DNA from: Magnetococcales bacterium DC0425bin3
Lineage (GTDB): Bacteria > Pseudomonadota > Magnetococcia > Magnetococcales > DC0425bin3
Assembly (NCBI GenBank): GCA_002753665.1
Contig: PEAP01000005.1
Location: 10,159-74,158, forward strand
DNA: 64,000 bases
Direction of reading: 5' to 3'
Positions 4,454 through 61,511 of the stretch are shown here, piece by piece. The translations under genes were made by a program, and so were the position numbers. The notes beneath the pieces were generated by a model. That model did no database searches and was not told the origin of the DNA. It saw only the letters and a list, made by a program, of their open reading frames with translations. The stretch's first letter is position 1; every line of letters begins with the position of its first letter.

Positions 4454-4605
4454 ATTCTCGCCAAGTGCGGGGCAAGGGAGCTGCGTCGTTGGCCCGGGTC
4501 ATCCCGGACCGGTCGAACTGGCCGATGCGAGAGGACGATCTCCCGATTACGCGATTCGACCAGCGATGAACCTACCAGAAATTCGTTGACTTTGCATCGG
4601 AAAGT

Positions 4606-4636
4606 TTACCGTGGAAGCCGGGAAGCGGCTTTCGGT
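4606..4636 (-). repeat. Bipartite palindromic repeat (BPR) copy a: hairpin module 2 only
   Basis: TTACCGTGGAAGCCGGGAAGCGGCTTTCGGT. The G/C-run module is absent. Confidence 0.7.
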
Positions 4637-4657
4637 ATTCCGCCGCGCACCGGTTGC

Positions 4658-12868: not shown

Positions 12869-13248
12869 AAGGACGCACCCTGCTCGCCATGACGGCCCTG
12901 CTGCTGACCGGCTGTTCCAGCACCTTCCAGATGCCTTGGGAGGACGATCTGCTGGATCCCCGGCGGGTCGCCACCCGGGAACCTCTGGAAATACCACCGG
13001 ATCTCCATGTGCTGCCGCCGGTGGCGTCCCAGGCGCCGGTGCGGGTCCAGCCCCGGACCGACGACCGGACGGTCGCCAGCGGTCCGCTGGAGAGCGCCGG
13101 TTCCATCCTGTTCGGGATGCCGCCAGCCGAACGGGTCGATCCCCTGGACCGTACCCGCCGGGAGGAACTGCCCGACTGGCTGGGCGGGGAGGGCGATCCA
13201 TCCAACTTCGATGGAGGGGGGAAACCTCCCTCCACCCTCCACCGATGA
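12865..13248 (+). CDS. Small lipoprotein whose C-terminal codons and stop are supplied by a repeat copy
   Basis: MKGRTLLAMTALLLTGCSS contains a lipobox (LTGC). ATG 12865 overlaps the lspA stop. The last ~14 codons (..FDGGGKPPSTLHR*) lie inside repeat copy d. Confidence 0.7.
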   Translation: MKGRTLLAMTALLLTGCSSTFQMPWEDDLLDPRRVATREPLEIPPDLHVLPPVASQAPVRVQPRTDDRTVASGPLESAGSILFGMPPAERVDPLDRTRREELPDWLGGEGDPSNFDGGGKPPSTLHR

Positions 13249-13258
13249 CAGCCGGTGT
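13207..13258 (+). repeat. BPR copy d (5' part intact, 3' hairpin replaced)
   Basis: TTCGATGGAGGGGGGAAACCTCCCTCCACCCTCCACCGATGACAGCCG.. It supplies the C-terminus and stop of the lipoprotein gene. Confidence 0.75.
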
Positions 13259-16031: not shown

Positions 16032-16115
16032 GGATTGTCGTGGCAATGACAGCAAGATCCTGTAGCTGTTTTTAGCATTCGGTTGGTGATTGTTTCAGTG
16101 TTGTTTGGCATCTTG

Positions 16116-16185
16116 TTACCGTGGAAGCCGGAAACCGGATTTCAGCGGAGGGGGGTGGAGGGAGGCTTCCCCCATCCATCGAAAG
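16116..16185 (-). repeat. BPR copy f (complete)
   Basis: TTACCGTGGAAGCCGGAAACCGGATTTCAGCGGAGGGGGGTGGAGGGAGGCTTCCCCCATCCATCGAAAG, ending 16 nt before ATG 16202. Confidence 0.85.
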
Positions 16186-16201
16186 TTAGTATCATCAACC
16201 C

Positions 16202-18094
16202 ATGAGCAGGATCGAAAAGACGCTCGATCGGATGCGGAACAATCCCAATGGTTTGCGGATTGATTCCTTGAAGTCCGTCGCGTCCCACCATGGGATCGAG
16301 TGGCGTCAAAAGGGCACCAGCCATGTGGTCTTTTTACGCACCGATGGGCGAGTCTTGCCTGTCCCGGCTTACAGCGCGATCAACCGGAACCCCAATCCGG
16401 AAACATTTCCGGTAACCCGGGTTCCAAAATCTCTTCAAGAACTGCAATCGATTTTCGGCGAAGAGTGCCAGGGCGAGACCGCGGAAGACTGTGCCCGAAC
16501 CTCTCTGCGTGAGTTCGTGCGCCATGCCGATCGCCTGGAACCGGCCACCGCAGCCCAGGGCGGTCATCGATTGACCGCGTGGGAGGCCTTGTCGAGCTTT
16601 GGCATTCGAATACTTGAAGAGATCTCAAAAAACGGCCTGTTTCGGATCGAAGACTCCCAGGACGTCCTTGCCCGAACCCTGAATGAGCGCATGGCTCTGC
16701 TCGGCTTGAGCGTCGCAGATCTGGCCAGGCACCTGGGCAGGACCCCAGCACTGGTCGAGCAGGCTCTGTCAGGAAACGTCATTCCGGACCATGATTTTAT
16801 TCTGAGCGCCGCCCAGGCTCTGGCTTTGGATGAAACGAAAATCGGTTTTTCTGCTGATACCGGAAATGTTTCCGGATTGGGGTTCCGGTTGCGGGAGTTG
16901 GCGTTCGCTCCGACGCCACTTCGTCCCAGGACGGTTCTGGCCCTCGGCGATGCCGGATGGCTGGCCGGAAAGCAGGGACAATTGGAACGTTGGCTCGCCG
17001 GGACCGAGGCCAGGCCAATCTCCGAACATTTCCAACCGGATCCCTTTTTCGGTGACCGGAACCGTCCAGCTTGGCGTTGTGGCTATGACCTCGCCGGCAG
17101 GACACGGGAAAAAATCGGACTCGATCCCGCTGCTCCCATTCCAAGCCTCCGGGACCTGATCGAAAACCAACTGCATATTCCCGTGATTTGTCTCGAACTG
17201 CCCCTCAAAATAGCGGGCGCCACGATTGCCAATGGCTCGTTCCGGGGAATCATCCTCAACATCCGCGGCCACAACGCAAACGAGTTCATCCGCCGGTCGA
17301 CCATGGCCCACGAGTTCGGCCACCTGCTGTGGGATCCCGATGAGCGTCTGTCGTTCCTGCGTGTCGATCTGTACGAGGACATTGCCCGAAACACGATCCG
17401 GATCAAGGATCCCGTCGAAGCCCGGGCCAATGCCTTCGCGGTGGAATTGTTGGCCCCGCAGAACGCCATGCTCGCCCTGTTCCGCCAGGAAAGCTCTCCA
17501 GAAGCCGGCCTCGGACGGGTCATGGGGCATTTCGGCATCAGTTCGACCAGTGCCCGGAATCATCTGATCAATGCCGCACGCCTCCGGGGCGAAGCCATCG
17601 CGATCGATGCTTCGATCAGAATTGACGCCAAACCAACGGACGAATGGAAAGCCCGGGAGTCCTTTACCCTGGATTGGTTTCCCCTGAAGGACACCCCGCC
17701 CCCCCGCCGGGGCCGGTTTGCCCTGCTGGTTGGACGGGCTTTTGCCGAAGGCCTGGTCTCCCTGGATTCGGCCTGCGCCATGCTGCGCTGCTCCCATGAT
17801 GAATTCTTGCATGGGCTCGACACCCTGTTCGATCTTTTCAACCATGCCGTGGACAGGACGCTTCCGGAGCGGCTCCGGAAAACGCCCAACGTTTGTGGTG
17901 GCGTCCCCTGCCTGGGCGCAACCCGGATTCCAGTCTGGATGCTGGAATATTGGCGTCGTTCCGGCGCCACGGCGGCAAATTTGAAAGAGTATTATCCGTC
18001 GCTGGACGATGAAGACCTGCAAAGCGCCTGGTCCTATGTGAGACACCATCGGGACGAAATCGAACGGCACATCCAGGAAAACGTCGCTGCCTGA
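16202..18094 (+). CDS. Multidomain protein: HicA-like N-terminus + XRE HTH + ImmA/IrrE (COG2856) metallopeptidase + C-terminal DUF433
   Basis: A single 630-aa ORF. Residues ~20-60 (LKSVASHHGIEWRQKGTSHVVFLRTDGRVLPVP) fit the HicA pattern. The HTH is LGLSVADLARHLGRTPALVEQALSG. The metallopeptidase shows HEFGH plus EARANAFAVELLAP. The C-terminus (CGGVPCLGATRIPVWMLEYW..YPSLDDEDLQSAWSY) is DUF433-like. Confidence 0.7.
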   Translation: MSRIEKTLDRMRNNPNGLRIDSLKSVASHHGIEWRQKGTSHVVFLRTDGRVLPVPAYSAINRNPNPETFPVTRVPKSLQELQSIFGEECQGETAEDCARTSLREFVRHADRLEPATAAQGGHRLTAWEALSSFGIRILEEISKNGLFRIEDSQDVLARTLNERMALLGLSVADLARHLGRTPALVEQALSGNVIPDHDFILSAAQALALDETKIGFSADTGNVSGLGFRLRELAFAPTPLRPRTVLALGDAGWLAGKQGQLERWLAGTEARPISEHFQPDPFFGDRNRPAWRCGYDLAGRTREKIGLDPAAPIPSLRDLIENQLHIPVICLELPLKIAGATIANGSFRGIILNIRGHNANEFIRRSTMAHEFGHLLWDPDERLSFLRVDLYEDIARNTIRIKDPVEARANAFAVELLAPQNAMLALFRQESSPEAGLGRVMGHFGISSTSARNHLINAARLRGEAIAIDASIRIDAKPTDEWKARESFTLDWFPLKDTPPPRRGRFALLVGRAFAEGLVSLDSACAMLRCSHDEFLHGLDTLFDLFNHAVDRTLPERLRKTPNVCGGVPCLGATRIPVWMLEYWRRSGATAANLKEYYPSLDDEDLQSAWSYVRHHRDEIERHIQENVAA

Positions 18095-18963: not shown

Positions 18964-19740
18964 GTGCCCGTCGTGTTCTGTCTGCTGGTGCTGCTGTTGC
19001 CGCTGCCCGTTCGGGCGCATTTCCAGTTGGTCTACAGCCCCCAGGTCCTCCTGGACCATCCCGCCACCCTGGAGTTCCGGCTGGTCTTCGCCCACCCCCT
19101 GGCCAACGGGGTGGTCATGGACATGGAGCCGCCCCAGGCCTTCTGGTATCACCACAAGGGCCAGCGGGTGGATCTGCTGGCCGCCCTGCGGACAATCGCC
19201 TGGCGCGGGCCGGACAACAGCGCCGCGGCCTACGGGGCCAGCGTGAGCCTCAAACGCAACGGCGACTACGTCTTCGTGGTGGAACCGACGCCCTACCTGG
19301 AAAAGCACGAGGATCTCTACATCCAGCAGATCGCCAAGAGCCATGTCAACAAGGGCGGCCTGCCCACCGGCTGGGAACAGCCCCTGGGCCTGAAAACCGA
19401 AATCGTGCCCCTGGTCAAGCCCACCAGCGTCCTGGTGGGCGGCACCTTCAGCGGGCAGGTGCTGTCCGGCGGCCGGCCGGTGGCCGGGGCCCAGGTGGAG
19501 GTGGAATGGCTCAACGGCCTGCCGGATGTCCAGGCCAACGCCTTCGGTTCCAGCCGGGTCACGCCGCCCGGTGCGGCCCTGGTGGTCATCACCGACGCCA
19601 ACGGGGTGTTCACCTTCGGCATTCCCCGGGCCGGCACCTGGGGCTTCGGCGCCCTGGGGGTGGGGCCGGATACGCACTACAAGGACAAGAAACTCAGTCA
19701 GGACGCCGTACTCTGGATCAACGCCGTCGAACTGCACTGA
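18964..19740 (+). CDS. DUF4198 / COG5266 (CbiK-like) periplasmic component of the cobalt/nickel uptake system
   Basis: 258 aa with a signal peptide (MPVVFCLLVLLLPLPVRAH, GTG start). Its size and its position first in the operon after the B12 riboswitch support the call. Confidence 0.6.
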   Translation: MPVVFCLLVLLLPLPVRAHFQLVYSPQVLLDHPATLEFRLVFAHPLANGVVMDMEPPQAFWYHHKGQRVDLLAALRTIAWRGPDNSAAAYGASVSLKRNGDYVFVVEPTPYLEKHEDLYIQQIAKSHVNKGGLPTGWEQPLGLKTEIVPLVKPTSVLVGGTFSGQVLSGGRPVAGAQVEVEWLNGLPDVQANAFGSSRVTPPGAALVVITDANGVFTFGIPRAGTWGFGALGVGPDTHYKDKKLSQDAVLWINAVELH

Positions 19741-19741
19741 G

Positions 19742-19806
19742 TTCGATGGATGGGGGAGGCCTCCCTCCACCCTCCACTGAAAGCCGCTTCCCGGCTTCCA
19801 CGGTAA
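19742..19806 (+). repeat. BPR copy g (complete, intercistronic)
   Basis: TTCGATGGATGGGGGAGGCCTCCCTCCACCCTCCACTGAAAGCCGCTTCCCGGCTTCCACGGTAA. It begins 2 nt after the DUF4198 gene stop and ends 23 nt before cbiM. Confidence 0.9.
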
Positions 19807-19829
19807 CCGGCAGCGCAAGGAGACTGAAC

Positions 19830-20492: not shown

Positions 20493-21301
20493 GCCGCGTT
20501 CTTCTGGCGGTTCTGCTCCTGGGCCTGGCCTGGCCCGGTTCCGGGGCGGCCCACAACATCATCGCCGAGGTCTATGTGGAAGGCACCCTCATCGAGGGCC
20601 AGGTGGGCTTCAGCAACGGCAGCCCCGCCCCCGGAGCCGGGGTGACGGTCCGCGGCCCGGACGGGGACTCCCTGGGCCAGGTCCAGACCGATCCCGAAGG
20701 GGTCTTCCAGTTCCGGGCCACCCGGCGCGTGGCTCACCAGTTCGATGTGGATGCCGGGGCCGGGCATGTGATCACCCTGCGGGTGGCCGCCGAGGACCTG
20801 CCCGAGCATTTGGATCAGGGCCCCCCCGCGCCGGCCGGCGCCACCGACCTGGGCGGCCCACGGCCACCCCATCCGGCAACCGGAGCAGTCACCCCGGTGG
20901 CGGTCACTTCGATGGATGGGGGAGGCTTCCCTCCACCCTCACCCGATGAAAGTCGTTCCGCGACTTTCAAGGTAACACCGGGGGAATCCACGACCCCGGT
21001 GGTGGCCCCGGAGGATCCCATGCCCCCCGAGGCCGAAATGGCCGGGGAAACGGCGTCCGCACCCCCGCCGGTGGCCGCTGCGCCGGCTCCGGTCGGCACG
21101 GCCCTGGACGAACAGTGCCTGAGCGAATTGGTGGAAAAGGCCGTGGCCCGCCAGGTGAAGCCCCTGCGCCAGCGGCTCCAGGCCCTGGAGACCGCGGTGC
21201 GCTTCCAGGACGTGCTGGGCGGGCTGGGCTACATCCTGGGGCTGACCGGCCTGGGGCTGTGGCTGACGGTGCGCCGCAAGGGCGGAGGCGACGCGCCATG
21301 A
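20489..21301 (+). CDS. Cbi/Nik transporter accessory protein (CbiN/NikL-like position): signal peptide, beta-rich domain, C-terminal TM
   Basis: 270 aa, overlapping cbiM by 4 nt and cbiQ by 4 nt. It has an N-terminal signal peptide and a C-terminal TM (LGGLGYILGLTGLGLWLTV). A repeat copy is read through in frame (SMDGGGFPPPSPDESRSATFKV). Confidence 0.55.
   Translation: MSRVLLAVLLLGLAWPGSGAAHNIIAEVYVEGTLIEGQVGFSNGSPAPGAGVTVRGPDGDSLGQVQTDPEGVFQFRATRRVAHQFDVDAGAGHVITLRVAAEDLPEHLDQGPPAPAGATDLGGPRPPHPATGAVTPVAVTSMDGGGFPPPSPDESRSATFKVTPGESTTPVVAPEDPMPPEAEMAGETASAPPPVAAAPAPVGTALDEQCLSELVEKAVARQVKPLRQRLQALETAVRFQDVLGGLGYILGLTGLGLWLTVRRKGGGDAP
20908..20975 (+). repeat. BPR copy h (complete, inside the cbi accessory ORF, in frame)
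   Basis: TTCGATGGATGGGGGAGGCTTCCCTCCACCCTCACCCGATGAAAGTCGTTCCGCGACTTTCAAGGTAA. Confidence 0.9.
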
Positions 21302-27007: not shown

Positions 27008-27075
27008 TTGCCGTGGAAGCCGAAAAGCGGCTTTCATCGGTGGAGGGTGGAGGGAGGCCTCCCCCATCCATCTGA
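27008..27075 (-). repeat. BPR copy j (complete)
   Basis: TTGCCGTGGAAGCCGAAAAGCGGCTTTCATCGGTGGAGGGTGGAGGGAGGCCTCCCCCATCCATCTG, upstream of the Hpt gene. Confidence 0.9.
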
Positions 27076-27169
27076 AATTGGCCAGACTGGTGTGGACGTT
27101 GGGAAGAGGGGGGACTGTGGACAGGTTTTGTTTCGCCATGGGTCGTACTGCCGATCTGGGAGGGGGAGC

Positions 27170-31025: not shown

Positions 31026-31077
31026 CTTCCACCGCCCACCCTCCCACCGATGAAAGCCGCTTTTCGGCTTCCACGGC
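31026..31077 (+). repeat. BPR copy k (degenerate module 1 + hairpin)
   Basis: CTTCCACCGCCCACCCTCCCACCGATGAAAGCCGCTTTTCGGCTTCCACGGCG, 20 nt after the dtd stop. Confidence 0.7.
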
Positions 31078-31232: not shown

Positions 31233-31303
31233 TTACCGCTGAAAGTCGCTCCGCGACTTTCAGCGGTGGAGGGTGGAGGGAGGCCTCCCCCATCCATCTA
31301 AAG
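31233..31303 (-). repeat. BPR copy l (complete)
   Basis: TTACCGCTGAAAGTCGCTCCGCGACTTTCAGCGGTGGAGGGTGGAGGGAGGCCTCCCCCATCCATCTAAAG, in inverted orientation relative to copy k. Confidence 0.9.
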
Positions 31304-31337
31304 TCAGCCACCCTCTGCTCAGCACAAGGAAGGAGCC

Positions 31338-31826
31338 ATGGCCATGACCACCCACGTCTCTTCACTGGAAGAAGCCCAGGAGTTGATCAACTCCCTCTAC
31401 CGCAAGGCGGAGGAGACCAACCGGGAGCTGGAGCAGGCCATTCAGCACGCCCGCAGCAACTTCGCGGTCATCGAAAAGCTGGCGATGTCCAGTCAGGAGA
31501 TCGGCAAGGCGGTGAAGGTGATCAAGAACATCGCCGGCCAGACCAACATGCTGGCCCTGAACGCCTCCATCGAGGCCGCGGGGGCCGGCGAGGCCGGCAA
31601 GGGCTTCGCGGTGGTGGCCAACGAGGTCAAGGACCTGTCCCGCCAGACCGCCGAAGCCACCAACATGATCGCCGAACGGGTGGACGAGATCCAGACCAAC
31701 ACTTACGAAGCCACCAGCACCGCCAAGGAAATGATCCAGTCCATCCAGCGCATCAGCGCCACCAACAACGAAATCTTCCAGAACGCCGACGCCGAGTTCG
31801 CCAAATCCGACGGCGGCGGGTTCTAG
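31338..31826 (+). CDS. Minimal soluble MCP: only the methyl-accepting-chemotaxis signalling (hairpin-tip) domain
   Basis: 162 aa. [37 protein letters not shown] is the MCP signalling tip. There is no TM, sensor or HAMP region. Confidence 0.75.
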
Positions 31827-31860: not shown

Positions 31861-32505
31861 TTGCTGTCCGTCATAGATAGGGAGAGACTCTTGGATCTGC
31901 ACCAGCACATTCTGGAAGCCACCGAAGAGAGCGTGATGGAGATCGTCAACACCATGCTCTTTCTCAACGTCGCCCCCAGCGCCGGGGTGGCGAAGCCCAC
32001 CGGGGTGGTCCATGTGGCGGCCCGGGCCGAGGTGTCGGCCATGGTGGGGCTCAACGGCGGCCTCAACGGCGGGGTGCGGGTGGCCTGCTCCGGGCCGGTG
32101 GCGCGCATCCTGGCCGGGGCGCTCTCCGGTGAGCATTACAAGGGCCTCACCGAGGAGGCCAAGGACGGTTTCGCCGAAATCGGCAACATGATCTCCGGCG
32201 GCATCCAGACCCGCCTGATGAACACCACCAACGTGGGGGAGGTCAACCTCACGCCGCCCACCATCATCGTCGGCGGCGATTACGAGGTGGATTACAAGAG
32301 CCAACTGGAAAGCGTGCGCCAGTTCTTCCGGGTCAACGACCAGCCCTTCTATGTGGAGGTTCACTACCAAGTGGAGGCCAAGCCCCAGGTCAACATCTCC
32401 CTGGATCCCGATGTGGTGGCCCAGGTGGATGCCTGGATCGGCCAGTTGGGCTCCGATCGGGCCGAGGTCCTGGCCAACCTGGTCAGGCGAGCCGCCGGGC
32501 GGTGA
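31861..32505 (+). CDS. CheX/CheC-like phosphatase domain fused to a C-terminal ribbon-helix-helix (CopG-like) segment
   Basis: 214 aa (TTG start). The CheX-like core is VMEIVNTMLF..AMVGLNGGLNGGVRVA..DGFAEIGNMISGG. The last ~45 aa (QVNISLDPDVVAQVDAWIGQLGSDRAEVLANLVRRAA) fit an RHH strand-helix-helix pattern. Confidence 0.6.
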   Translation: MLSVIDRERLLDLHQHILEATEESVMEIVNTMLFLNVAPSAGVAKPTGVVHVAARAEVSAMVGLNGGLNGGVRVACSGPVARILAGALSGEHYKGLTEEAKDGFAEIGNMISGGIQTRLMNTTNVGEVNLTPPTIIVGGDYEVDYKSQLESVRQFFRVNDQPFYVEVHYQVEAKPQVNISLDPDVVAQVDAWIGQLGSDRAEVLANLVRRAAGR

Positions 32506-32730: not shown

Positions 32731-33096
32731 TCAGACCGACAACGGCTGACAGCAGCCCTCGTTCCAGGCGGTCTGCATGCTGGTGTCCAGCATGGCATTG
32801 AATTCATCGCGGTTGACCATCAGCATGTCGAGGGTCTGCCGGGCCTGGTTCAGCAGGCGCTGCCCCAGGGTTTCCGTCAGCTCGGCTTGTTCCCGCACCA
32901 CCTGCTGAAAGTCCATGGGCAGGCCGCCCATGATCCGCCATTGGTCGGATCCGGAACGGACCACATGCCCCACGGCGTCCAGTTGATGGTCGGCCAGATT
33001 GCGCAGGGCTGCGCCATGGATCTCTTGAAACCTGGCCGCGGCGTCGAAGAGGGTTTGGGTCAGGTTGACATTGGTTCGCAACAACGATCTCCCCAT
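32731..33096 (-). CDS. Hypothetical helical protein (phasin-like by composition)
   Basis: 121 aa from ATG 33096 (RBS AGAGAGG). The helical, Q/L/A-rich sequence gives only weak, by-eye similarity to phasin-family proteins. Confidence 0.4.
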   Translation of the reverse strand: MGRSLLRTNVNLTQTLFDAAARFQEIHGAALRNLADHQLDAVGHVVRSGSDQWRIMGGLPMDFQQVVREQAELTETLGQRLLNQARQTLDMLMVNRDEFNAMLDTSMQTAWNEGCCQPLSV

Positions 33097-33242
33097 GGGG
33101 CACCTCTCTGGAAGGCCGATTCCGTCCATACGGAAACCGGATCCGTATCGTGGAATCTGGAGTCAGCATAGCGATCCCCCGCGGACCGCGCAAGGGCATT
33201 TTTTTGCGGCGCGGAAAAATACGCTGGCGCCGTGGGGTGGGG

Positions 33243-33605
33243 CTACAGCAGTTTGACCAGGGCGGCCACCACGGCCACGCCGGTCACCAGCATGCCGCCC
33301 AGGCGCAGGGTCAGGGAGTGGGTCAGGCGCAGTTCGAGTTCCTTCATGTCGCGGCGCAGGTTGGCTTCCATGCTGGTCATGTCGCGGCGCAGGTTGGCAT
33401 CGATGGCGGCAATGTCCCGTTTCAGGTTGGCCTCGATCATGGCCATATCCCGTTTCAGGTCCGCCACGTCTTTTTTGGTGGCCAGGCGTTCCTCCACCAG
33501 GGCGACCAGGGCTTCGGCCTGGACTTCGGCCTGCTGCTCGGAGAAGCCGGCGGTTTTCAGTTTCTTGGCGTAGGCCAGGGTGTCGAAGGCGATGGCGTGG
33601 TCCAT
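33243..33605 (-). CDS. DUF1640-like tail-anchored coiled-coil protein, paralog with 3 hendecad repeats
   Basis: 120 aa. It has the MDHAIAFDTLAYAKKLKTAGFSEQQAEVQAEAL start, three 11-aa units (IEANLKRDIAA/IDANLRRDMTS/MEANLRRDMKE) and a C-terminal TM (LGGMLVTGVAVVAALVKLL). Confidence 0.75.
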   Translation of the reverse strand: MDHAIAFDTLAYAKKLKTAGFSEQQAEVQAEALVALVEERLATKKDVADLKRDMAMIEANLKRDIAAIDANLRRDMTSMEANLRRDMKELELRLTHSLTLRLGGMLVTGVAVVAALVKLL

Positions 33606-33627
33606 GATCGGTTCTCCCGTGGCGCGG

Positions 33628-34056
33628 CTACAGCAGTTTGACCAGGGCGGCCACCACGGCCACGCCGGTCACCAGCATGCCGCCCAGGCGCAGGGTCAGG
33701 GAGTGGGTCAGGCGCAGTTCGAGCTCCTTCATGTCGCGTTTCAGGTTGGTTTCCATGGCGGCCATGTCGCGTTTCAGGTTGGTTTCCATGGCGGCCATGT
33801 CGCGGCGCAGGTTGGCTTCCATACTGGTCATGTCGCGGCGCAGGTTGGCATCGATGGTGGCCATATCCTGCCGCAAGTTGGCCTCGATCATGGCCAGATC
33901 CCGCTTCAGATCCGCCACGTCCTTCTTGGTGGCCAGACGTTCCTCCACCAGGGCGACCAGGGCTTCGGCCTGGACTTCGGCCTGCTGCTCGGAGAAGCCG
34001 GCGATTTTCAGCTTCTTGGCGTAGGCCAGGGTGTCGAAGGCGATGGCGTGGTCCAT
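33628..34056 (-). CDS. DUF1640-like tail-anchored coiled-coil protein, paralog with 5 hendecad repeats
   Basis: 142 aa. Its termini are near-identical to the neighbours and it has five NL(K/R)(R/Q)DM units. The 22-nt spacer upstream is identical to that of the next gene. Confidence 0.75.
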   Translation of the reverse strand: MDHAIAFDTLAYAKKLKIAGFSEQQAEVQAEALVALVEERLATKKDVADLKRDLAMIEANLRQDMATIDANLRRDMTSMEANLRRDMAAMETNLKRDMAAMETNLKRDMKELELRLTHSLTLRLGGMLVTGVAVVAALVKLL

Positions 34057-34078
34057 GATCGGTTCTCCCGTGGCGCGG

Positions 34079-34474
34079 CTACAGCAGTTTGACCAGGGCG
34101 GCCACCACGGCCACGCCGGTCACCAGCATGCCGCCCAGGCGCAGGGTCAGGGAGTGGGTCAGGCGCAGTTCGAGTTCCTTCATGTCGCGGCGCAGGTTGG
34201 TTTCCATGGCGGCCATGTCGCGGCGCAGGTTGGCTTCCATGCTGGTCATGTCGCGGCGCAGGTTGGCATCGATGGTGGCAATGTCCCGTTTCAGACTGGC
34301 CTCGATCATGGCCATATCCCGTTTCAGGTCCGCCACGTCTTTTTTGGTGGCCAAGCGATCTTCCACCAGGGCGACCAGGGCTTCGGCCTGGACTTCGGCC
34401 TGCTGCTCGGAGAAGCCGGCGATTTTCAGTTTTTTGGCGTAGGCCAGGGTGTCGAAGGCGATGGCGTGGTCCAT
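34079..34474 (-). CDS. DUF1640-like tail-anchored coiled-coil protein, paralog with 4 hendecad repeats
   Basis: 131 aa. It is the first gene of the tandem trio on the minus strand and has four hendecad units. Confidence 0.75.
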   Translation of the reverse strand: MDHAIAFDTLAYAKKLKIAGFSEQQAEVQAEALVALVEDRLATKKDVADLKRDMAMIEASLKRDIATIDANLRRDMTSMEANLRRDMAAMETNLRRDMKELELRLTHSLTLRLGGMLVTGVAVVAALVKLL

Positions 34475-34544: not shown

Positions 34545-35516
<972 letters not shown>

Positions 35517-35722
35517 GGTCGGTCGGGGTCCTTGGGAATGGCAGTGGGTCACGGGATCATCCTCCATCCGCCACGGTAACCCAGGCCCCGGCCGCCGGCA
35601 AGACCGGCCGGCCCTGGACCCGGACCCGGGGAAGGTCTATAAAGTGAACCCGGGGGCCGGAGGATTCCCGGTCCCCGCCTGACCGGCCGGGGGGCGGCGG
35701 AACCGAACACGGAAGAATCAAG

Positions 35723-38290: not shown

Positions 38291-38672
38291 GGTCGAACTC
38301 CCATTCGAGGCCGAAGCGGGCGCTGTGATCCGCCGGTTCGGCAATTTTTTCCTGGCCATTCTTTCCGGGCGGTCGGCCGGCAGGCCGGCCCGGAGCGGGC
38401 AGGGGGGTGACTGTTCCCCCTCAGAGGCGGAAATCAGCAATAACCATGCCTGGGGGAGAATTCTCTGGCGCCACGCTGGTTCATATGGTCTGGGAGAAAA
38501 TGGACGCCAAGAATTTCGACAGTGACGAGCAGCACGCTGACAGCTCAATTTCGTTGCACGCTGTCCAGAAACTTTCTGCCGTTGCTCCGATGGATGCGCA
38601 CTATTTTCCGTCCCATATCACCTGGTGGCCCCCCTTGGGGTTGGAAAGAGCAGGCCTGTTTTCTGTTGTGAC

Positions 38673-38742
38673 TTTGATGGATGGGGGAGGCCTCCCTCCA
38701 CCCTCCACCGATGGAAGCCGGTTCCCGGCTTCCACACGGTAA
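38673..38742 (+). repeat. BPR copy m (complete)
   Basis: TTTGATGGATGGGGGAGGCCTCCCTCCACCCTCCACCGATGGAAGCCGGTTCCCGGCTTCCACACGGTAA, ending 3 nt before ATG 38746. Confidence 0.9.
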
Positions 38743-40956: not shown

Positions 40957-41015
40957 TTGGCTGGGGCATGCCTCGGACCGGGAGCGACGGTTTCGGAACG
41001 AATTTTGCTGACTTG

Positions 41016-41083
41016 TAGATGGATGGGGGAGGCCTTCCGCCACCCTCCACCGGTGAAAGTGGCGGAGTGAGTCTCACCGGTAA
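41016..41083 (+). repeat. BPR copy o2 (complete, variant hairpin)
   Basis: TAGATGGATGGGGGAGGCCTTCCGCCACCCTCCACCGGTGAAAGTGGCGGAGTGAGTCTCACCGGTAA, ending 17 nt before ATG 41101. Confidence 0.85.
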
Positions 41084-48337: not shown

Positions 48338-49387
48338 ATGATTCACACCGATTCCATTCAGATCACGCCGGAATTGCTGGCTTTGATCGCCGAGATCGAC
48401 GAGTTCAAGGGCGCGTGGCGCGCCCTGGGAACCCTTGCGCCCGAGCGCCTGCGGGCGCTGCGCCACATCGCGACGATAGAAAGCATCGGCTCCTCCACCC
48501 GGATCGAAGGCAGCAAGCTGACCGACCGCGAGGTGGAGCAACTCCTGGGCAAGCTGGAAATCAAAAAATTCACCAGCCGCGACGGGCAGGAAGTCGCCGG
48601 TTATGCCGAGGCGATGGAGACGGTCTTCCATGCCTGGAAGGACATCCCCATCACCGAGAACCACCTCAAACAACTGCACCGCGACCTACTGCGCTACAGC
48701 GAGAAAGACGAGCGGCACCGAGGCGAATACAAGACCCTGCGCAACGATGTCGGCGCATTCGACGCCGCCGGGAAGATGATCGGCATCGTCTTCGAGACGG
48801 CCACGCCCTTCGACACGCCGCGCCGGATGCAAGAGCTTGTCGCCTGGCTGAGCGAGGCCCGCGAGTTGGGCCGGATTCACCCCTTGCTGATCGTCGCCGT
48901 CTTCACCGTCGTCTTCCTGGAAATCCACCCCTTCCAGGACGGCAACGGCCGTCTCAGCCGCATTCTCACCACGCTGCTGCTGTTACAGGCTGGCTATGCC
49001 TATGTGCCCTATTCGTCGCTTGAGAGCGTGATCGAGAACAGCAAGGAAGGCTATTATCTGGCCCTGCGCCAAACCCAGGGCACGATCCGCAGCGAAGCCC
49101 CGGACTGGCAGCCTTGGCTGATGTTCTTCCTGCGCGCCTTGCAGCAGCAAAAGCGCCGCTTGGCCGAGAAGGTAGAGCGCGAGAGGAAGGCGATTGCCGA
49201 CCTGCCGGAGCTGGCAATCAAGATTCTGGACTATGTCCGGGATCATGGCCGTGTTACGACCCGCGATATAGTGCGCGAACACGGCGCGAGCCCAAACACC
49301 CTGAAGGCCACTTTTACGTCCCTGGTTGATAAAGGGCTGCTGGCGCGCCACGGTGGCGGCAGGTCAACCTGGTATGGCCTGCCATGA
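48338..49387 (+). CDS. Fic family protein (class II, N-terminal inhibitory motif) with C-terminal winged-helix
   Basis: 349 aa. The Fic motif is HPFQDGNGRLSR. The upstream STRIEG fits the (S/T)xxxE(G/N) auto-inhibition motif. The C-terminus is wHTH-like (ILDYVRDHGRVTTRDIV). Confidence 0.9.
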   Translation: MIHTDSIQITPELLALIAEIDEFKGAWRALGTLAPERLRALRHIATIESIGSSTRIEGSKLTDREVEQLLGKLEIKKFTSRDGQEVAGYAEAMETVFHAWKDIPITENHLKQLHRDLLRYSEKDERHRGEYKTLRNDVGAFDAAGKMIGIVFETATPFDTPRRMQELVAWLSEARELGRIHPLLIVAVFTVVFLEIHPFQDGNGRLSRILTTLLLLQAGYAYVPYSSLESVIENSKEGYYLALRQTQGTIRSEAPDWQPWLMFFLRALQQQKRRLAEKVERERKAIADLPELAIKILDYVRDHGRVTTRDIVREHGASPNTLKATFTSLVDKGLLARHGGGRSTWYGLP

Positions 49388-49644: not shown

Positions 49645-49658
49645 GTGCCATTGGGATG
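49627..49658 (+). repeat. Direct repeat copy 2 flanking the fic cassette
   Basis: AAGAAAATTCTTATCTAAGTGCCATTGGGATG. It starts where the methylase homology breaks off and ends 7 nt before the ATG of the next operon. Confidence 0.8.
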
Positions 49659-49665
49659 CTGGACA

Positions 49666-50808
49666 ATGAGTCATTCAACAGCCTTGATGATCAGATATCT
49701 GCGCCGTGCCTTTGACGCAGCACGCCACGACCATGGTCAGAAGGTCGCCTATGCCTATATTGGAGAAATCATCCTCGCCAACCTGCTTGATGGGTTGGAG
49801 CAGGAACTCTTCGACAAGACATTCGCCAATGGCTTGATCCAGTGCTGGATGCGCAATTATGACCGGCAAAGGCAGGCGATCGGGAAGGCGGACGTCCCAT
49901 CCGGGACCCAATCCCTCTTCAAAGACCCGACGCCCTCTGAAATGCTCGCCGACAGTTTCGACCTGGTGTGCGGCATGCCCTCTCCCGACTGTCCTGAAGC
50001 CCCCCACAGGCAAAGGGGGTTCCGAATTCGGTGTACTCGTCCGCTTGATAATGCAACGGTGAAAGGGGATTATGTCAGCATCACCGGTGCCAAGGATTTC
50101 GTGGATGAAATAATGGATCCCGAAGAGAAGCGCAAGAAAATTGGCGAAAACTGGATCCCCACAATACTCAGTTCCGGGAATATCGACTGGGCAGGCTGGA
50201 GGCCACCCAAGAAAATCCCGGTGAAGCTCAAGAATGCCCCGACAGGAAACCCGACTTCCACCATCGGTAATCCAGCGAGAGTCTTGTGGATCACTCCAGA
50301 AGCAGGACTCACCTTGATGGATGGGGGAGGCCTCCCTCCACCCTCCACCGATGGAAGTCGCGGAGCGACTTCCACTCCCGCCCATCTGCTCCGGGATCGA
50401 TTGGGTCTCGTGCATCATTTCGAGAAACCGCTTCTCGCCATGACGCTGCCCGCCGCCACGGTACACGCCATGACTCACGGCCGTCCGACCTGCGCGGATG
50501 CCGGCAGCCAGCGCCGTCACATGGCCAGGGGAGCCGGCAAGTCCGCTCCCACCGACCCCTGGGGCAGAACGGCGGACCTGTCACGCATCACCCCCACAGC
50601 GGTGGATTTCGACGGATTGCCGGAACGAATCGTGGAACCGATCCCGGTCGGCGAACTCCCGGAGATCGAGGTCCAGCCACTGGGCTTCTGTGGCCCGGAA
50701 CGGGGTAACTCGCCGCAGGATGACAACCGGGTTTTCGCCGACCATTTATGCCGCCGGCATGGAGGGGTCGACGGCGTGGTGGATACCTTGGAAAGGGTAC
50801 TGGCGTGA
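49666..50808 (+). CDS. Hypothetical protein A of a three-gene operon (repeat copy read through in frame)
   Basis: 380 aa from ATG 49666. The AT-richer N-terminal ~215 aa and the GC-richer C-terminal ~140 aa are joined by repeat copy q (TLMDGGGLPPPSTDGSRGATST). No domain was recognised. Confidence 0.55.
   Translation: MSHSTALMIRYLRRAFDAARHDHGQKVAYAYIGEIILANLLDGLEQELFDKTFANGLIQCWMRNYDRQRQAIGKADVPSGTQSLFKDPTPSEMLADSFDLVCGMPSPDCPEAPHRQRGFRIRCTRPLDNATVKGDYVSITGAKDFVDEIMDPEEKRKKIGENWIPTILSSGNIDWAGWRPPKKIPVKLKNAPTGNPTSTIGNPARVLWITPEAGLTLMDGGGLPPPSTDGSRGATSTPAHLLRDRLGLVHHFEKPLLAMTLPAATVHAMTHGRPTCADAGSQRRHMARGAGKSAPTDPWGRTADLSRITPTAVDFDGLPERIVEPIPVGELPEIEVQPLGFCGPERGNSPQDDNRVFADHLCRRHGGVDGVVDTLERVLA
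50314..50375 (+). repeat. BPR copy q (complete, inside ORF A, in frame)
   Basis: TTGATGGATGGGGGAGGCCTCCCTCCACCCTCCACCGATGGAAGTCGCGGAGCGACTTCCAC. Confidence 0.9.
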
Positions 50809-51941
50809 GCAGTGATTCCCAAGAGAGCAGGGAACCATGGGAAGAGTCCGAAGAACATTGGGGGTTCGATACCGTGGACGCCGGGAACCGGCTTCCATCG
50901 GCGGAGGGTGGAGGGAGGCTTCCCCCATCCATCACAGTCAGTCCGGTCGTCCCCGAACGCCGACGGGCCGACTCCAATATTCCCGGCTTCGAACGATGGC
51001 TCCGTGATGGCCTGGAGGGGCACCTCCTGGACCATCTCACTCTGGAAGAAGCCTTTCCCGAACTGGCGCCCATCCTGAGCCGCAGCCACTCACTGTCCGC
51101 CACTCTGCAGGAACTCATCGATCGCCAGGACAGCGTCAGACGCAGCGATTTCAAACAGGCTCTGGCCAACCTGTTGGCATCCCTGGCCCCCCAGCCACGG
51201 AATATCCCCCTGTTCGAAACGATCCTCCAGATCGCGGTGGCGGTGAAAGCCCATGAGATCTTCCATCCCCTGGTGTTCCGTATTCGGGAAGGGTTCTGGG
51301 ACCGATGGACCACGGCGCAAGGCAATTCCCTGTTGACCGAGGCGATGCTGGCCGTCTCGCAATTGGCCGCGCCGCGCCCCGATGCCTTGGACTGCCTCAA
51401 CGGGTTGATCGATTCCGTCCCTTTCCAGCAGAAGCCTTACCCGCACACACTGATCGCCCTGGAATCCCTGTGTCGCTGTGAACCCAAGCGTTTTCCCCAA
51501 CACTTCGAACGGCTGCGGACCATGTTGGAGATCCAAATCCGCCAGTTCCAGCCTGCAGCCGAGCATCTGCGCTGGACCGCGGCCGCCCTGATCACCCTGG
51601 TGGGACCCGCTCGCTTTCTCGAAGATTTGATCAGCATCGTGGGGGGGGGAACTTTTCGCGGGGGCGATGACCAGGTTTTCTGGGTATTGAAAGCGGTCTT
51701 CTCTCCCCTGGACGATCTGCCCCCTCTTCTTCTCTGCCAGGAAGCGGATACCGAGGGCGAGTGGAAATTTTATCTTTCCGGCAACCCGACCGCGCTTGAT
51801 TTTTCAATTTCGAGTCACCTGGGTTGGAGTCGTTTGCTTGAGCTGTTCATACAACAGGGTTGGGTGCCCCAGATGGTGCTGCCGGAGGGAGCAAATGAGC
51901 AGGTCAACGACTTTTTTCGCATGAAGCCGATCGCCGCATGA
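50805..51941 (+). CDS. Hypothetical protein B of a three-gene operon (all-helical, repeat copy near the N-terminus)
   Basis: 378 aa from GTG 50805 (GTGA overlap with gene A). Repeat copy r is translated (DAGNRLPSAEGGGRLPPSIT). The remainder looks like helical repeats. No motif was recognised. Confidence 0.55.
   Translation: MSSDSQESREPWEESEEHWGFDTVDAGNRLPSAEGGGRLPPSITVSPVVPERRRADSNIPGFERWLRDGLEGHLLDHLTLEEAFPELAPILSRSHSLSATLQELIDRQDSVRRSDFKQALANLLASLAPQPRNIPLFETILQIAVAVKAHEIFHPLVFRIREGFWDRWTTAQGNSLLTEAMLAVSQLAAPRPDALDCLNGLIDSVPFQQKPYPHTLIALESLCRCEPKRFPQHFERLRTMLEIQIRQFQPAAEHLRWTAAALITLVGPARFLEDLISIVGGGTFRGGDDQVFWVLKAVFSPLDDLPPLLLCQEADTEGEWKFYLSGNPTALDFSISSHLGWSRLLELFIQQGWVPQMVLPEGANEQVNDFFRMKPIAA
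50870..50934 (-). repeat. BPR copy r (complete, inside ORF B, in frame)
   Basis: TACCGTGGACGCCGGGAACCGGCTTCCATCGGCGGAGGGTGGAGGGAGGCTTCCCCCATCCATCA. Confidence 0.9.
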
Positions 51942-51954
51942 ACATGCATATGCA

Positions 51955-54393
51955 ATGGGTAATGCCATGAATCCATCGGATCCCCCCTCTCGACTGGCTG
52001 ATCTGTTCGAGGCCGCGGTCCGACAGCGGCGCCTGATGGATGGCTGGATCGACGATCAGAAATTGACGGAAGAGGGCGGTCGGGTCTGGTATGCGGTCGA
52101 TGCCGATGTCGTGGCTCTTTTCACCAAGCCGACTGAGATCGCCGTTGGGAGGATCGACCGGGAAGGTTACGCGGTGGTGTTTCCTGGTGACGAAGCCGAT
52201 GAAGAGAACAAGGAGGCGACCATCGCCCTTGGCCATGCCCTGGCGCGCCATATATTCTCAATGTCGCGTGAGGTTCCATTGTTGGCACTGCCCCCGACCC
52301 GGACGGAGCTGCGCCGGATATATACCGCTGTTGTCCAGGAAGCCGAGGAAGAGAAATACAACGCCCAGAAGGATCTGGATGACCTCTTGAACATCCAGGC
52401 CGCACTCGGCAGGATTGTCGACCAGCAGCAGTGCAGACAATGGCTGGAAAGGAATGTTCCTGCCATCAGTCGCCTCTTGTTCGGATTGGGTACCACGGGA
52501 CAGCTATTGCGATTATCCCACCTGTTCCGCGAGAAGAGGTTGGCGAACATGAGCCAACTGGTCTCGACGCCCGGGCTGCCCGTCTCTCTCGCCAACGCTC
52601 TGCGGGGGCCAGTTGCCTCTGCCGATGTCATTGAGTTTTCCAAAGTCAAGGAAAAATGGCTCCACGGATTGGTCGATCAATACTGCGAACGGACAAAAAC
52701 AAAACCGAAGGATATGCCTCAACGGGTCTTGAATAACTTCATTAATGATGCCGAGCTGCTTGCCTGGATCCAGTGGATCAACCACCATCTGGCAGAAACC
52801 AGACAGCGCATGGTCCTGGTGACAGGTTCAGTCAACCTGTTTCACCTGACCCGTGGGACCGATCCCCATGGGATCTTTTCCGGGACGGGCAGGAGTTTTG
52901 CCGATCTTTACCTGCGTCACCCGAAGGCATTCCTGGCCGAGCCTTCGGTCCTGTTTCCCTCCCCTGATGCCGGGCGCCAGGGCGACGGCGACGCCCCGGT
53001 TCCCAAAAAGAAACGATTTTTCGATTGGCTGGAGACCTTGCTCTCCTATTCGAAGGGCTACAGGGAAGAGAGCAGCCGGACGCAGCTGGAAAGGAATGCC
53101 CAGGAGGCGTTGACAACCCAACCGGACCTGTTGCGGGATTTCGAAAAGGATTGGGCGGCCTATCGTTTTTCCGTTCTGCCCACCCACCAGATCAGCGACC
53201 CGGCGCTGAATGGCAATCAGGGCGTTCGCCTGCCAATCGATACCAGGCTTTTCGATCTGTTCAAGGCTTCCCAGGCAATCGATCAACTGCGGGATGGAAT
53301 TCGGTCACTGGTGAATAACCAGCTGGAACTGAACTGGAATGCCTGTTTCAATATCGCCACCTTGGCCGGTTATGGCCTGCTGTCCCAGAAGGGGAAAGAC
53401 GAGGAGATCCCCACCCGCAATCCACCCCCCATCTACTTCTCCAGCCTGCCCGAGGCCTCCCGGTTCATTACCGGACTCCCATTCTTCAAACGGTTGATCC
53501 AAGCCCGGGAGGAGAGACAGCCTCTGGACTCTGGAGATTTTGAGAAGGCCCTGGCCAGGCTCCGGGGCGAAGATCCTTCCGGTTACACATTCAGCTTGGG
53601 GTTTGCCCAACTGTATGCCATGGAAGGCGATTGGATCGTCTCCAACATTCAAGCCAAACGGGCCTTTCACATCGCCGAAAACAGTTCCCAGGAACTGATC
53701 TCCGGACGGGAAGCCGCCTATATGCGGGCGGTGGCCCGGCGTCATTCCGCGAAAGGCATGGAAGATCTGCTGCGGGTGCGGAACCACCTGGCAACGGCCC
53801 GGGAGCGGCTGGAGCGGGACCTTCGCCGTGCCAACCCCACCACCACCACGGACCTGCGCTTTCAGGCCGAAGAGTTGGCCGTGTCTGTCACGGCCCATCT
53901 CTTTCGGATGTTCTGCGGTCACAGTATTCCCTCCGAGCTGGAGGTACCACCGTCCCTCGTGGAAACCGAGAGCCTTCTGGAATCCTTGATCAATGCAATG
54001 AAGGAGAAGACATATGCCAGCGAGAACAACCTGGTGAAATTGCAGGTCGAACAGCATCTCCTGGTCAATCTGCTCATGGTCGCCCTGCTGCGCCACAGGC
54101 ATGATCCCGAATCCATCCATGGAAGTGATTATCTGCCCTGGTACCAGAAACTGAACCAGAATATCGATGCGAGCGGCTCCATCATTCGGACCACATTCTT
54201 TGTCAGTGTCATCCGCAGCACGGTTCGGTGGTTGGTCGGTGAGGATCGGAAAGATCGTAAGGAAGCGATGGGAGAACTGAATCGTCTGCTGACCGACATG
54301 GCCATCGACGATCGCACCCGGTCGATCTTTCCCTACGACAAGGCGCGCTATCGTTATTTGCGGGATCTGGTCAACGGGAAACCGGACCGGTGA
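51955..54393 (+). CDS. Hypothetical large protein C of a three-gene operon
   Basis: 812 aa, starting 13 nt after gene B. The N-terminal segments VWYAVDADVVALF and FINDAELLAWIQWI..RMVLVTGS are faintly PIN-like. The C-terminal half is helical and TPR-like. No confident family was assigned. Confidence 0.65.
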   Translation: MGNAMNPSDPPSRLADLFEAAVRQRRLMDGWIDDQKLTEEGGRVWYAVDADVVALFTKPTEIAVGRIDREGYAVVFPGDEADEENKEATIALGHALARHIFSMSREVPLLALPPTRTELRRIYTAVVQEAEEEKYNAQKDLDDLLNIQAALGRIVDQQQCRQWLERNVPAISRLLFGLGTTGQLLRLSHLFREKRLANMSQLVSTPGLPVSLANALRGPVASADVIEFSKVKEKWLHGLVDQYCERTKTKPKDMPQRVLNNFINDAELLAWIQWINHHLAETRQRMVLVTGSVNLFHLTRGTDPHGIFSGTGRSFADLYLRHPKAFLAEPSVLFPSPDAGRQGDGDAPVPKKKRFFDWLETLLSYSKGYREESSRTQLERNAQEALTTQPDLLRDFEKDWAAYRFSVLPTHQISDPALNGNQGVRLPIDTRLFDLFKASQAIDQLRDGIRSLVNNQLELNWNACFNIATLAGYGLLSQKGKDEEIPTRNPPPIYFSSLPEASRFITGLPFFKRLIQAREERQPLDSGDFEKALARLRGEDPSGYTFSLGFAQLYAMEGDWIVSNIQAKRAFHIAENSSQELISGREAAYMRAVARRHSAKGMEDLLRVRNHLATARERLERDLRRANPTTTTDLRFQAEELAVSVTAHLFRMFCGHSIPSELEVPPSLVETESLLESLINAMKEKTYASENNLVKLQVEQHLLVNLLMVALLRHRHDPESIHGSDYLPWYQKLNQNIDASGSIIRTTFFVSVIRSTVRWLVGEDRKDRKEAMGELNRLLTDMAIDDRTRSIFPYDKARYRYLRDLVNGKPDR

Positions 54394-60379: not shown

Positions 60380-61510
60380 TCAATCGGAAAACCGGTCACG
60401 CACCGCCAGCACATCGTCCAGATGGTCCATGAACGCCTGCACCACCCGGGGATCGAAATGGGAGCCGCTCTGGCGCCGCAGCAGGTCCAGGGATTTGTCC
60501 ACGCTCCAGGCCTTCTTGTAGGGTCGATCGGAGGTGAGGGCGTCGAACACGTCCACCACGGCGCAGATGCGTCCCTCCAGGGGGATCGCCTCGCCCTTGA
60601 GACCGGCTGGATACCCACTGCCGTCCCATTTTTCGTGGTGGGTCAGGGCGATGGCATGGGCGGTCTGCAACAGTTCCACCCCCTCGGTTTCCAGGATCCT
60701 GGCGCCGATTTCCGAATGCCGCTTCATACTTTCGAATTCCAGCGGATGCAGCTTGCCCGGTTTGAGCAGGATGTTGTCCGGAATGCCGATCTTGCCCAGG
60801 TCGTGCATGGGGACGGCGTTTTCCAGCATGGCCACCCGGTCCGGATCCAGTCCCAGGGCCCGGCCGACGATGCCGGCGTATTTGCTGACCCGGGTGACAT
60901 GGCGGCTGGTTTCGTTGTCCCGGTATTCGGCGGCGCGGCCCAGCCGTTCGATGATCTCCAACTGGGCGCGTTCCAGCTCGGCGGTGCGGCGCCGCACCTG
61001 CTCCTCCAGCCGGCTGGTGAGCATGCGCACCCGCAGGATGCCGGTGATCCGGGGCACCACCTCCAGGGGATCGATGGGCTTCTGCAGAAAATCCTGGGCG
61101 CCGGCCCGCAGGGCGTCCAGACGGACGGCCCGGTCGGTGTGGGCGGTGATGACCACCACCGGGATGTAGGAATTGTCGGCATGGCGCCGCACCGCCGCCA
61201 TCACCTCGCCGCCGCTCAGATGGGGCATCTCCCAATCCAGCAGCAGCAGGTCGCAGGGCTGCTCGGCGTACAGCCGCACCGCCTCCCGGGAATCGGTGGT
61301 GGTGGTGAGATTGGTGAAGCCCTCCCGGGCCAGAATGGTCTCCAGCAGCCGGTTGTTCACCGGCTGGTCGTCCACGATCAGGATCCGGGCCTTGAGGATC
61401 TCTTCGCCACAGTCGAATTGTCGCATCACCGCGATGGTTCCATTGCCGTTGCTGGTCTCTTCCTCCCCCCCGTCGGCTCCGTGGCCCCCCCCCGGGGGCC
61501 CCTGGTCCAC
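60380..61510 (-). CDS. Response regulator receiver + HD-GYP phosphodiesterase (RpfG-type)
   Basis: It has a REC domain (ILIVDDQPVNNRL, LLDWEMPHLSG) and an HD-GYP domain (HDLGKIGIPD, HHEKWDGSGYP). The alternative start is ATG 61426. Confidence 0.88.
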   Translation of the reverse strand: MDQGPPGGGHGADGGEEETSNGNGTIAVMRQFDCGEEILKARILIVDDQPVNNRLLETILAREGFTNLTTTTDSREAVRLYAEQPCDLLLLDWEMPHLSGGEVMAAVRRHADNSYIPVVVITAHTDRAVRLDALRAGAQDFLQKPIDPLEVVPRITGILRVRMLTSRLEEQVRRRTAELERAQLEIIERLGRAAEYRDNETSRHVTRVSKYAGIVGRALGLDPDRVAMLENAVPMHDLGKIGIPDNILLKPGKLHPLEFESMKRHSEIGARILETEGVELLQTAHAIALTHHEKWDGSGYPAGLKGEAIPLEGRICAVVDVFDALTSDRPYKKAWSVDKSLDLLRRQSGSHFDPRVVQAFMDHLDDVLAVRDRFSD

Positions 61511-61511
61511 G

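Follow-up and report, generated by a model that had tools for sequence, protein, structure and literature searches.

The eukaryotic proteins MCUR1 and CCDC90B are ascribed a head-neck-stalk-anchor architecture in the account of PMC8224590, which cites Adlakha et al. (2019, Structure 27:464) and, on the same authority, reports that the length of the stalk matters for the interaction of MCUR1 with MCU. Membrane coiled coils of this family are found in prokaryotes and in organelles. The yeast homologues Put6 and Put7 are oriented toward the mitochondrial matrix (PMC7519068). In DUF1640 membrane proteins, a beta-layer motif is located "prominently at the beginning of the C-terminal stalk" (Hartmann et al. 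2016, PMC4786415), and Tcar0761 and the stalks of trimeric autotransporter adhesins are trimeric rods with short repeats, non-heptad periodicities, and beta-layers (PMC4786415). The Bdr proteins (Borrelia direct repeat; Pfam KID repeat, PF02524) are multi-copy, inner-membrane-associated, and of unknown function. Bdr paralogues have a conserved N-terminal domain, central 11-residue repeats that vary in number, and a C-terminal transmembrane segment (PMC10016077). Here, we describe a locus of Magnetococcales bacterium DC0425bin3 that is probably a tandem array of three paralogues from the prokaryotic CCDC90/MCUR1-like family (PF07798, formerly DUF1640). It lies within a stretch of 64,000 nucleotides of contig PEAP01000005.1 (assembly GCA_002753665.1, positions 10,159 to 74,158), hereafter called the window, to which the coordinates of the locus refer.

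The three genes are arranged head to tail on the minus strand. Gene 1 (34079-34474), recognized by its open reading frame (ORF), Pfam match, and alignment, encodes a CCDC90-like protein of 131 amino acids (aa). It is followed by gene 2 (33628-34056), which encodes 142 aa, and gene 3 (33243-33605), which encodes 120 aa. The positions and lengths agree with those of an earlier reading made from the letters of the DNA (the sequence-only reading). The near-identical N-termini and C-terminal anchors, and the consensus of the repeat, are also as that reading had quoted them. The proteins are 95-97% identical in pairwise comparisons. All of the length differences come from gaps in the central repeats, of 11 and 22 residues in the proteins and of 33 and 66 bp in the DNA, so that the claimed steps of exactly 11 residues hold. 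Stretches of 162, 124, and 98 bp are repeated exactly between copies. Gene 2 is the copy that is most diverged at synonymous sites: the numbers of codons with synonymous and non-synonymous differences are 13 and 7 between genes 1 and 2, 10 and 6 between genes 2 and 3, and 3 and 4 between genes 1 and 3.

The spacers between the genes, at 34057-34078 (spacer 1) and 33606-33627 (spacer 2) on the minus strand, have the same 22-nucleotide sequence CCGCGCCACGGGAGAACCGATC, as the sequence-only reading had stated. The sequence occurs exactly twice in the window, and none of 100 shuffles contained a match to it with up to three mismatches permitted. Each spacer carries a GGGAGA Shine-Dalgarno-like site, and a GGGAG(A/G)A site of this kind is positioned 7 nucleotides 5' of the ATG in all three genes. 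Tandem Repeats Finder identifies a period of 451 bp, which is one gene and one spacer (2.2 copies, 91% matches, score 1662), and a 33-bp period within each of the three genes. The GC content is 0.85-0.88 at third codon positions and 0.35-0.36 at second positions, resembling that of neighbouring real genes, which indicates that the minus strand is coding and that the overlapping plus-strand ORFs are shadows. It is only from the 22-nucleotide spacers that the genes may be taken to be co-transcribed; a scan for promoters and terminators found none inside the array.

The central part of each protein is an array of 11-residue units (hendecads) of the type L(K/R)(R/Q)D(M/I/L)xx(I/M/L)(E/D)xx. The arrays, all on the minus strand, extend over 34163-34327 in gene 1 (five units), 33712-33909 in gene 2 (six units), and 33327-33458 in gene 3 (four units). 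Counted as LxRDM hendecads in the order of ascending coordinates (genes 3, 2, and 1), there are thus 4, 6, and 5 units; the counts of 3, 5, and 4 given by the sequence-only reading are correct in its own frame. In gene 2, the 33-bp unit CGCGACATGGCCGCCATGGAAACCAACCTGAAA is present as two perfect copies in tandem at 33739-33804 (33772-33804 and 33739-33771, minus strand). This duplication is the most recent change in length.

The hydrophobic periodicity of the stalks peaks at 3.64-3.65 residues, close to the 11/3 = 3.67 residues of a hendecad coiled coil. The power is 42-52 at 3.67 and 0.5-10 at 3.50, so that the non-canonical, hendecad character proposed from the sequence was well founded. Sequence identity within the stalks is 0.49-0.58 at a lag of 11 residues and does not exceed 0.13 at other lags except 22. 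The property is shared by the family, since 88% of 99 stalks peak at 3.60-3.74. The consensus unit of the family is L-(K/R)-(R/H)-D-(M/L/I)-K-E-(L/M)-E-x-x, in which the hydrophobic positions 1, 5, and 8 form the core and the R/H-D pair is at least 95% conserved. One hendecad corresponds to three helical turns; therefore, each added unit keeps the register of the core and lengthens the stalk by about 1.6 nm (11 × 0.15 nm). From residue counts and standard helix geometry, the distance between the membrane and the head, which is the same in each protein, would be about 8, 10, and 11 nm for stalks of about 55, 66, and 77 residues.

The three genes are members of PF07798. Their products score 35.8 (gene 2), 35.1 (gene 1), and 32.4 bits (gene 3) against the profile, the gathering score of which is 33.5 bits, and the family is present in the precomputed annotation of all three proteins. 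The best PDB match of a phmmer search is 6h9m, a GCN4 fusion of the human CCDC90B head, of which the entry contains three identical chains. The match is weak (E = 0.0045), spans residues 4-99, and includes the residues FDT...GF...QAE. Both results bear out the earlier description of the proteins as DUF1640-like.

The architecture of the proteins is a two-helix head, a beta-layer neck, the hendecad stalk, and a C-terminal transmembrane tail. The head of gene 1 comprises residues 1-40 (34355-34474, minus strand). The AlphaFold2 monomer (pLDDT score 89.5), which was built on an alignment of homologues, contains helices at residues 9-18 and 23-40, a break at 41-43, and then one helix, 44-141, that continues through the hydrophobic C-terminus. 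In all three proteins, residues 41-46 are LATKKD (34337-34354 in gene 1, 33919-33936 in gene 2, and 33468-33485 in gene 3, minus strand), which fits the beta-layer motif [aliphatic]-A-T-K-[polar]-[D/E]. Residues L41, A42, T43, K44, and D46 are at least 90% conserved among 92 homologues. The three proteins terminate in LGGMLVTGVAVVAALVKLL, and the anchors are encoded at 34082-34138 (gene 1), 33631-33687 (gene 2), and 33246-33302 (gene 3) on the minus strand. The 19 residues at the C-terminus are hydrophobic, a signal peptide or N-terminal hydrophobic segment is absent, and only three residues lie beyond the hydrophobic tail, as expected of the tail-anchored proteins that the sequence-only reading had proposed. 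These features, together with the matrix-facing orientation of the yeast homologues, suggest that the head and stalk are cytoplasmic and held on an inner-membrane tail anchor. By analogy with their homologues, the proteins may form trimers.

In comparison with MCUR1 and CCDC90B, the window proteins have a head that aligns, weakly, with that of CCDC90B, an A-T-K-x-D neck, a long stalk, and a C-terminal anchor. However, the window proteins are much smaller (120-142 aa) and lack a targeting sequence. Their stalks are near-perfect hendecad repeats, and the copies, which lie in tandem, have a common head and anchor and different numbers of units. Short sequence repeats, a non-heptad periodicity, and a beta-layer are also features of the beta-layer stalks. 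Tcar0761 is built of nonad MATKDD repeats with alternating alpha and beta layers, whereas in the window proteins a single neck motif precedes a stalk made of helical hendecads alone. Unlike the adhesins, which are exported to the surface, the window proteins are predicted to be cytoplasmic and tail-anchored.

The organization of the array is most closely matched by Bdr. Two adjacent bdr genes on lp28-7 encode proteins of 189 and 284 aa with a shared N-terminus, different numbers of 11-residue repeats, and a C-terminal transmembrane segment. The length of the KID model is 11, and the lp28-7 Bdr proteins score 23-69 bits against it. The stalk repeats are similar (DLRKDMSNLAQ and NLRRDMTSMEA); a tblastn search of plasmids matched a Bdr gene at E = 3e-5, and hhalign gave a probability of 93% for an alignment of the repeats only (profile columns 43-106, Bdr residues 65-144). 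In contrast, the N-terminal domain of Bdr does not align with the window proteins and has no clear A-T-K-x-D neck, and the bdr genes are scattered on plasmids and prophages, whereas the window genes form a chromosomal head-to-tail array. The KID model is not among the Pfam matches of the three window proteins at E ≤ 1. Because the alignment is limited to the repeats and a KID match is lacking, Bdr is best regarded as the closest known analogue of the organization. It is possibly a distant relative, but not a member of the same family. The shared variation in the number of 11-residue repeats in front of a C-terminal anchor, in a multi-copy family, is a functional resemblance and not proof of membership, and the similarity of the repeats could be convergent.

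The family and an analogue of its organization are known, whereas the recurrent tandem organization, with one head, one anchor, and stalks stepped by hendecads, appears not to have been described. No description of tandem length-variant arrays in bacteria was found in a set of papers that mention DUF1640, a scope that leaves aside the primary family paper of Adlakha et al. 2019. PF07798 has 10,864 cluster representatives at E ≤ 0.001. In a profile search, two or more family genes were present at 3 of 27 species-representative loci, on 10 of 42 viral contigs, and on 15 of 80 metagenome contigs, or 10-25% of the loci sampled; the counts cover all fetched loci, and many of the metagenome contigs are short. 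The lengths of homologues fall into 11-residue series (87, 98, 109, 120, 131, and 142 aa; 94, 105, 116, 127, and 138 aa). At least seven metagenome loci have pairs of genes with a common head and anchor and different numbers of 11-residue units, and the repeat sequences of these pairs are unrelated (for example, KKDIEQIRSDT and MTEQSAEFRQA). Support for the recurrence of the organization comes from many lineages, some of it from assemblies that are apparently long-read.

The largest arrays were found on three contigs of 1-5.7 Mb from one sample (L033-L035; European Nucleotide Archive ERZ19489113, s246.ptg000271l, s41.ptg000043l, and s58.ptg000060c), the hifiasm-style names of which suggest a long-read assembly. 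They contain 13-14 tandem copies encoding 87-170 aa and are interrupted by a transposase of the IS1595 family. The heads and anchors within these arrays are identical, and the differences in stalk length are made up of steps of 11 and 18 residues. The 18-residue steps result from 7-residue inserts (RDIQELK) between the hendecads of some stalks (7 + 11). The viral contigs L044-L048 from IMG/VR contain, at 4068-5264, four adjacent paralogues that are well diverged and have two types of anchor (...ALVKLL and ...LVLKAFFPS). This four-gene locus is of a different kind from the recent length variants.

The sequence-only reading had called for a comparison of gene number and repeat number among related strains or metagenomes, and both vary between close relatives. 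Two of the three long contigs, which are 99.5-99.7% identical, differ by an 87-bp (29-codon) change in the stalk of one gene, and the third contains one extra gene. Contigs L031 and L032 from the Joint Genome Institute (JGI) differ by one gene copy at a flank identity of 99.9%. In other Magnetococcales metagenome-assembled genomes (MAGs), a single-copy orthologue located between the genes of citrate synthase and acetolactate synthase encodes 165, 174, or 192 aa at flank identities of 96-98%, and it is of equal length in a pair of MAGs at 99.6%. The differences between strains and the duplication in gene 2 indicate that the numbers of repeats and of genes evolve very rapidly. The earlier proposal that the nested repeats are a substrate for slippage or recombination agrees with the perfect 33-bp duplication and with the variation of repeat and gene numbers at flank identities of 96-99.9%.

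The array probably originated by tandem duplication, and the near-identical ends of the copies would reflect either the recency of the duplication or gene conversion. The stalks would change length in frame when whole 33-bp units are gained or lost by slippage or unequal recombination, and the number of genes would change by unequal crossover between copies. These mechanisms are deduced from the patterns of repeats and copies, and the difference between the window and one near-identical assembly (L038, described below) may instead be a collapse during assembly. If the proteins work like MCUR1, a partner would be bound by the head, and its distance from the membrane would depend on the stalk. 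The graded set of rods proposed by the sequence-only reading is plausible as a functional claim. A bolder version, which is rather doubtful, is that a length series of trimeric tail-anchored rods with 1.6-nm steps and one type of head and anchor is a selected, widespread bacterial device, of which Bdr would be another instance. Within the series, identical binding heads would stand at a number of fixed distances from the cytoplasmic surface of the membrane, and unequal recombination would generate and reshuffle the series fast enough for it to differ between co-occurring strains.

It is possible, though less likely than not, that the genes are real and that the differences in length have no function, being a result of dosage amplification or of neutral drift in repeat number. 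A single copy is the rule (24 of 27 species representatives and 65 of 80 metagenome loci), and repeat number varies in single-copy orthologues too. Because the coiled coil tolerates the gain or loss of hendecad units, repeat number may wander; the 33-bp unit is always in frame, so intact ORFs are little informative about selection. A search for a partner or conserved context by Pfam among 99 flanking ORFs of 33 loci found no conserved neighbour, and no family occurred more than three times. However, many lineages, with repeat sequences that are unrelated, have pairs that share head and anchor and differ in the stalk; one array has retained 13-14 copies intact, nearly all of them of different length; and the stalk length of MCUR1 is reported to matter in the account cited above (PMC8224590). 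These points do not amount to a formal test of selection.

It is unlikely that the actual genome has one gene and that the three-gene array is a mis-join of strain alleles with three, four, and five repeats. The suspicion is raised by contig JADFWZ010000004.1 (L038) of a Magnetococcales MAG (assembly GCA_015233965.1), which was reached via a cluster mate of the 120-aa protein. Its flanks are 99.9% identical to those of the window over about 10 kb on each side (about 20 kb in total) and have the same gene order, and the locus between them holds a single gene of 120 aa. The exact repeats shared by the copies would trouble short-read assemblers. An exact search of the JGI metagenome contigs for the junction sequence gave no match.

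Four lines of evidence speak for the array. L038 lacks the 22-nucleotide junction, which could not have been put together from single-copy flanks; its presence at two places in the window indicates that reads running from stop codon through spacer to ATG must exist. The flanks differ by 0.1%, whereas gene 2 is separated from its two neighbours in the array by 13 and 10 synonymous and by 7 and 6 non-synonymous codon differences. In a four-way alignment, the L038 gene has the gene 1 variants at its 5' end (AAAAAA and ATC) and the gene 3 variants from codon 38 on, and the switch falls in a stretch of 60 nucleotides that is identical in all copies, which is the signature of a collapsed or deleted array. 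Finally, equivalent arrays are present on the hifiasm-named, apparently long-read contigs of other bacteria. The L038 gene is the expected product of unequal crossover between genes 1 and 3, and equally of the collapse of the array by an assembler. The sequence-only reading had regarded related genomes with a fixed single-copy gene and no variation in repeat number as evidence against its proposal; a near-identical assembly with one copy does exist, but since that copy is a chimera of genes 1 and 3, it is not the ancestral single gene.

Several observations weigh against the array of CCDC90/MCUR1-like paralogues. The near-identical L038 has one 120-aa gene at the locus instead of three, and the copy number in the actual genome is uncertain, given exact repeats as long as 162 bp between copies; the same repeats mean that it could be three or more. 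The gene 3 product scores 1.1 bits under the cut-off of PF07798, though it is 95-97% identical to the other two. The sequence match to the PDB is weak, and a Foldseek comparison of the AlphaFold2 monomer with the PDB gave no match at E ≤ 0.001, which is expected for a single long helix. The eukaryotic homologues, which are the source of the functional analogy, are about 20-25% identical to the window proteins, and in the absence of a conserved neighbour the functional part of the interpretation depends on that analogy.

Upstream of the array, after a gap of 70 nucleotides to gene 1, is a gene for an NAD-dependent sugar epimerase/dehydratase that resembles UDP-xylose synthase (34545-35567, minus strand). 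Downstream, 113 nucleotides from gene 3, is a gene with a weak match to Phasin_2 (32731-33129, minus strand; 25.8 bits, cut-off 24.9). The nearby genes include the UDP-xylose-synthase-like epimerase, a TviB-like dehydrogenase, the phasin-like protein, CheX, and a small protein for methyl-accepting chemotaxis protein (MCP) signalling. This set of neighbours is shared only with L038. Sugar-nucleotide genes lie beside the arrays of the window, L031, and L037, which is probably a coincidence because no family occurs more than three times among the flanking ORFs. Searches of the three proteins against NCBIfam gave no match, and those against the PADLOC defence models gave none at E ≤ 0.01. The contig index has no record of the 142-aa protein.

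It is very improbable that the 11-residue repeats are amphipathic surface helices of the apolipoprotein, perilipin, or late embryogenesis abundant type, which would cover a lipid or polyhydroxyalkanoate granule jointly with the phasin-like neighbour. An 11-residue periodicity is common in such proteins, the window and related proteins have weak matches to the Pfam Apolipoprotein family, and the downstream gene matches Phasin_2. However, the Apolipoprotein profile reaches 12.9 bits against a cut-off of 90. Only 3 of the 11 positions (1, 5, and 8) are hydrophobic, forming a stripe of about 66 degrees that resembles the core of a coiled coil and not a wide lipid-binding face. A trimeric coiled-coil structure has been solved for a relative, a beta-layer neck is present in the family, and the adjacency to a phasin gene was not seen at other loci in the survey of neighbours. 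A phage origin of the genes, with a holin- or antiholin-like role in lysis or superinfection exclusion, is suggested by family members on 42 IMG/VR contigs and in phage APSE and by matches to phrog_17872 (E = 2.6e-10, function unknown) and, weakly, to a holin PHROG (E = 0.005), but is scarcely credible for a locus whose neighbours are ordinary genes of the chromosome and that has no phage gene within 10 kb, no PADLOC match, and a holin match that is at noise level and spans only the helix and the transmembrane tail.

In another Magnetococcales MAG (L036, JADGCI010000019.1, 4674-7459), a single family member of 231 aa has a proline-rich tail after the transmembrane segment. Its gene is located between MamX/MamZ-like genes (MamS_MamX; major facilitator superfamily and ferric reductase domains) and an OmpA-like gene. 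A general link of the family to magnetosomes was considered and rejected, since the family is spread over many non-magnetotactic lineages and no such genes are near the window locus.

The window contains other features of note. Downstream of the array, an MCP signalling domain of 162 aa that stands alone, without a transmembrane or sensor part (31338-31826), is followed by a CheX-like phosphatase (31861-32505). An ORF of 630 aa at 16202-18094 combines HTH_31, an IrrE/M78 peptidase domain, and DUF433, and a Fic-domain protein is encoded at 48338-49387. Pfam (E ≤ 1e-5) gives no match for the long ORFs at 49645-50808, 51955-54393, and 60422-61519 (387, 812, and 365 aa). An intergenic repeat of about 50-80 nucleotides, resembling repetitive extragenic palindromes and bacterial interspersed mosaic elements (REP/BIME), is dispersed over at least 12 sites of the window in both orientations. 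It consists of two palindromic parts, GAAAGCCG...CGGCTTTC and GGTGGAGGGTGGAGGGAGGCCTCCCCCATCCATC. The sites are located at about 13205-13256, 16109-16186, 19738-19808, 20903-20976, 27010-27077, 31036-31077, 31233-31308, 38669-38735, 41007-41083, 50311-50371, 50872-50940, and 56021-56092, and none of the copies touches the three-gene array.

The locus is a clear case of short-read metagenome assemblies of one population disagreeing, with three genes in one and one gene in the other, and copy number in such families is therefore probably under-counted. The anatomy of the proteins will not surprise a specialist in coiled coils. However, the prokaryotic relatives of MCUR1 and CCDC90B are a very large family without known function, on which the length series offers a direct handle. 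A natural series of stalk lengths is a ready-made experiment on the role of length, and it could also reveal what the conserved head binds.

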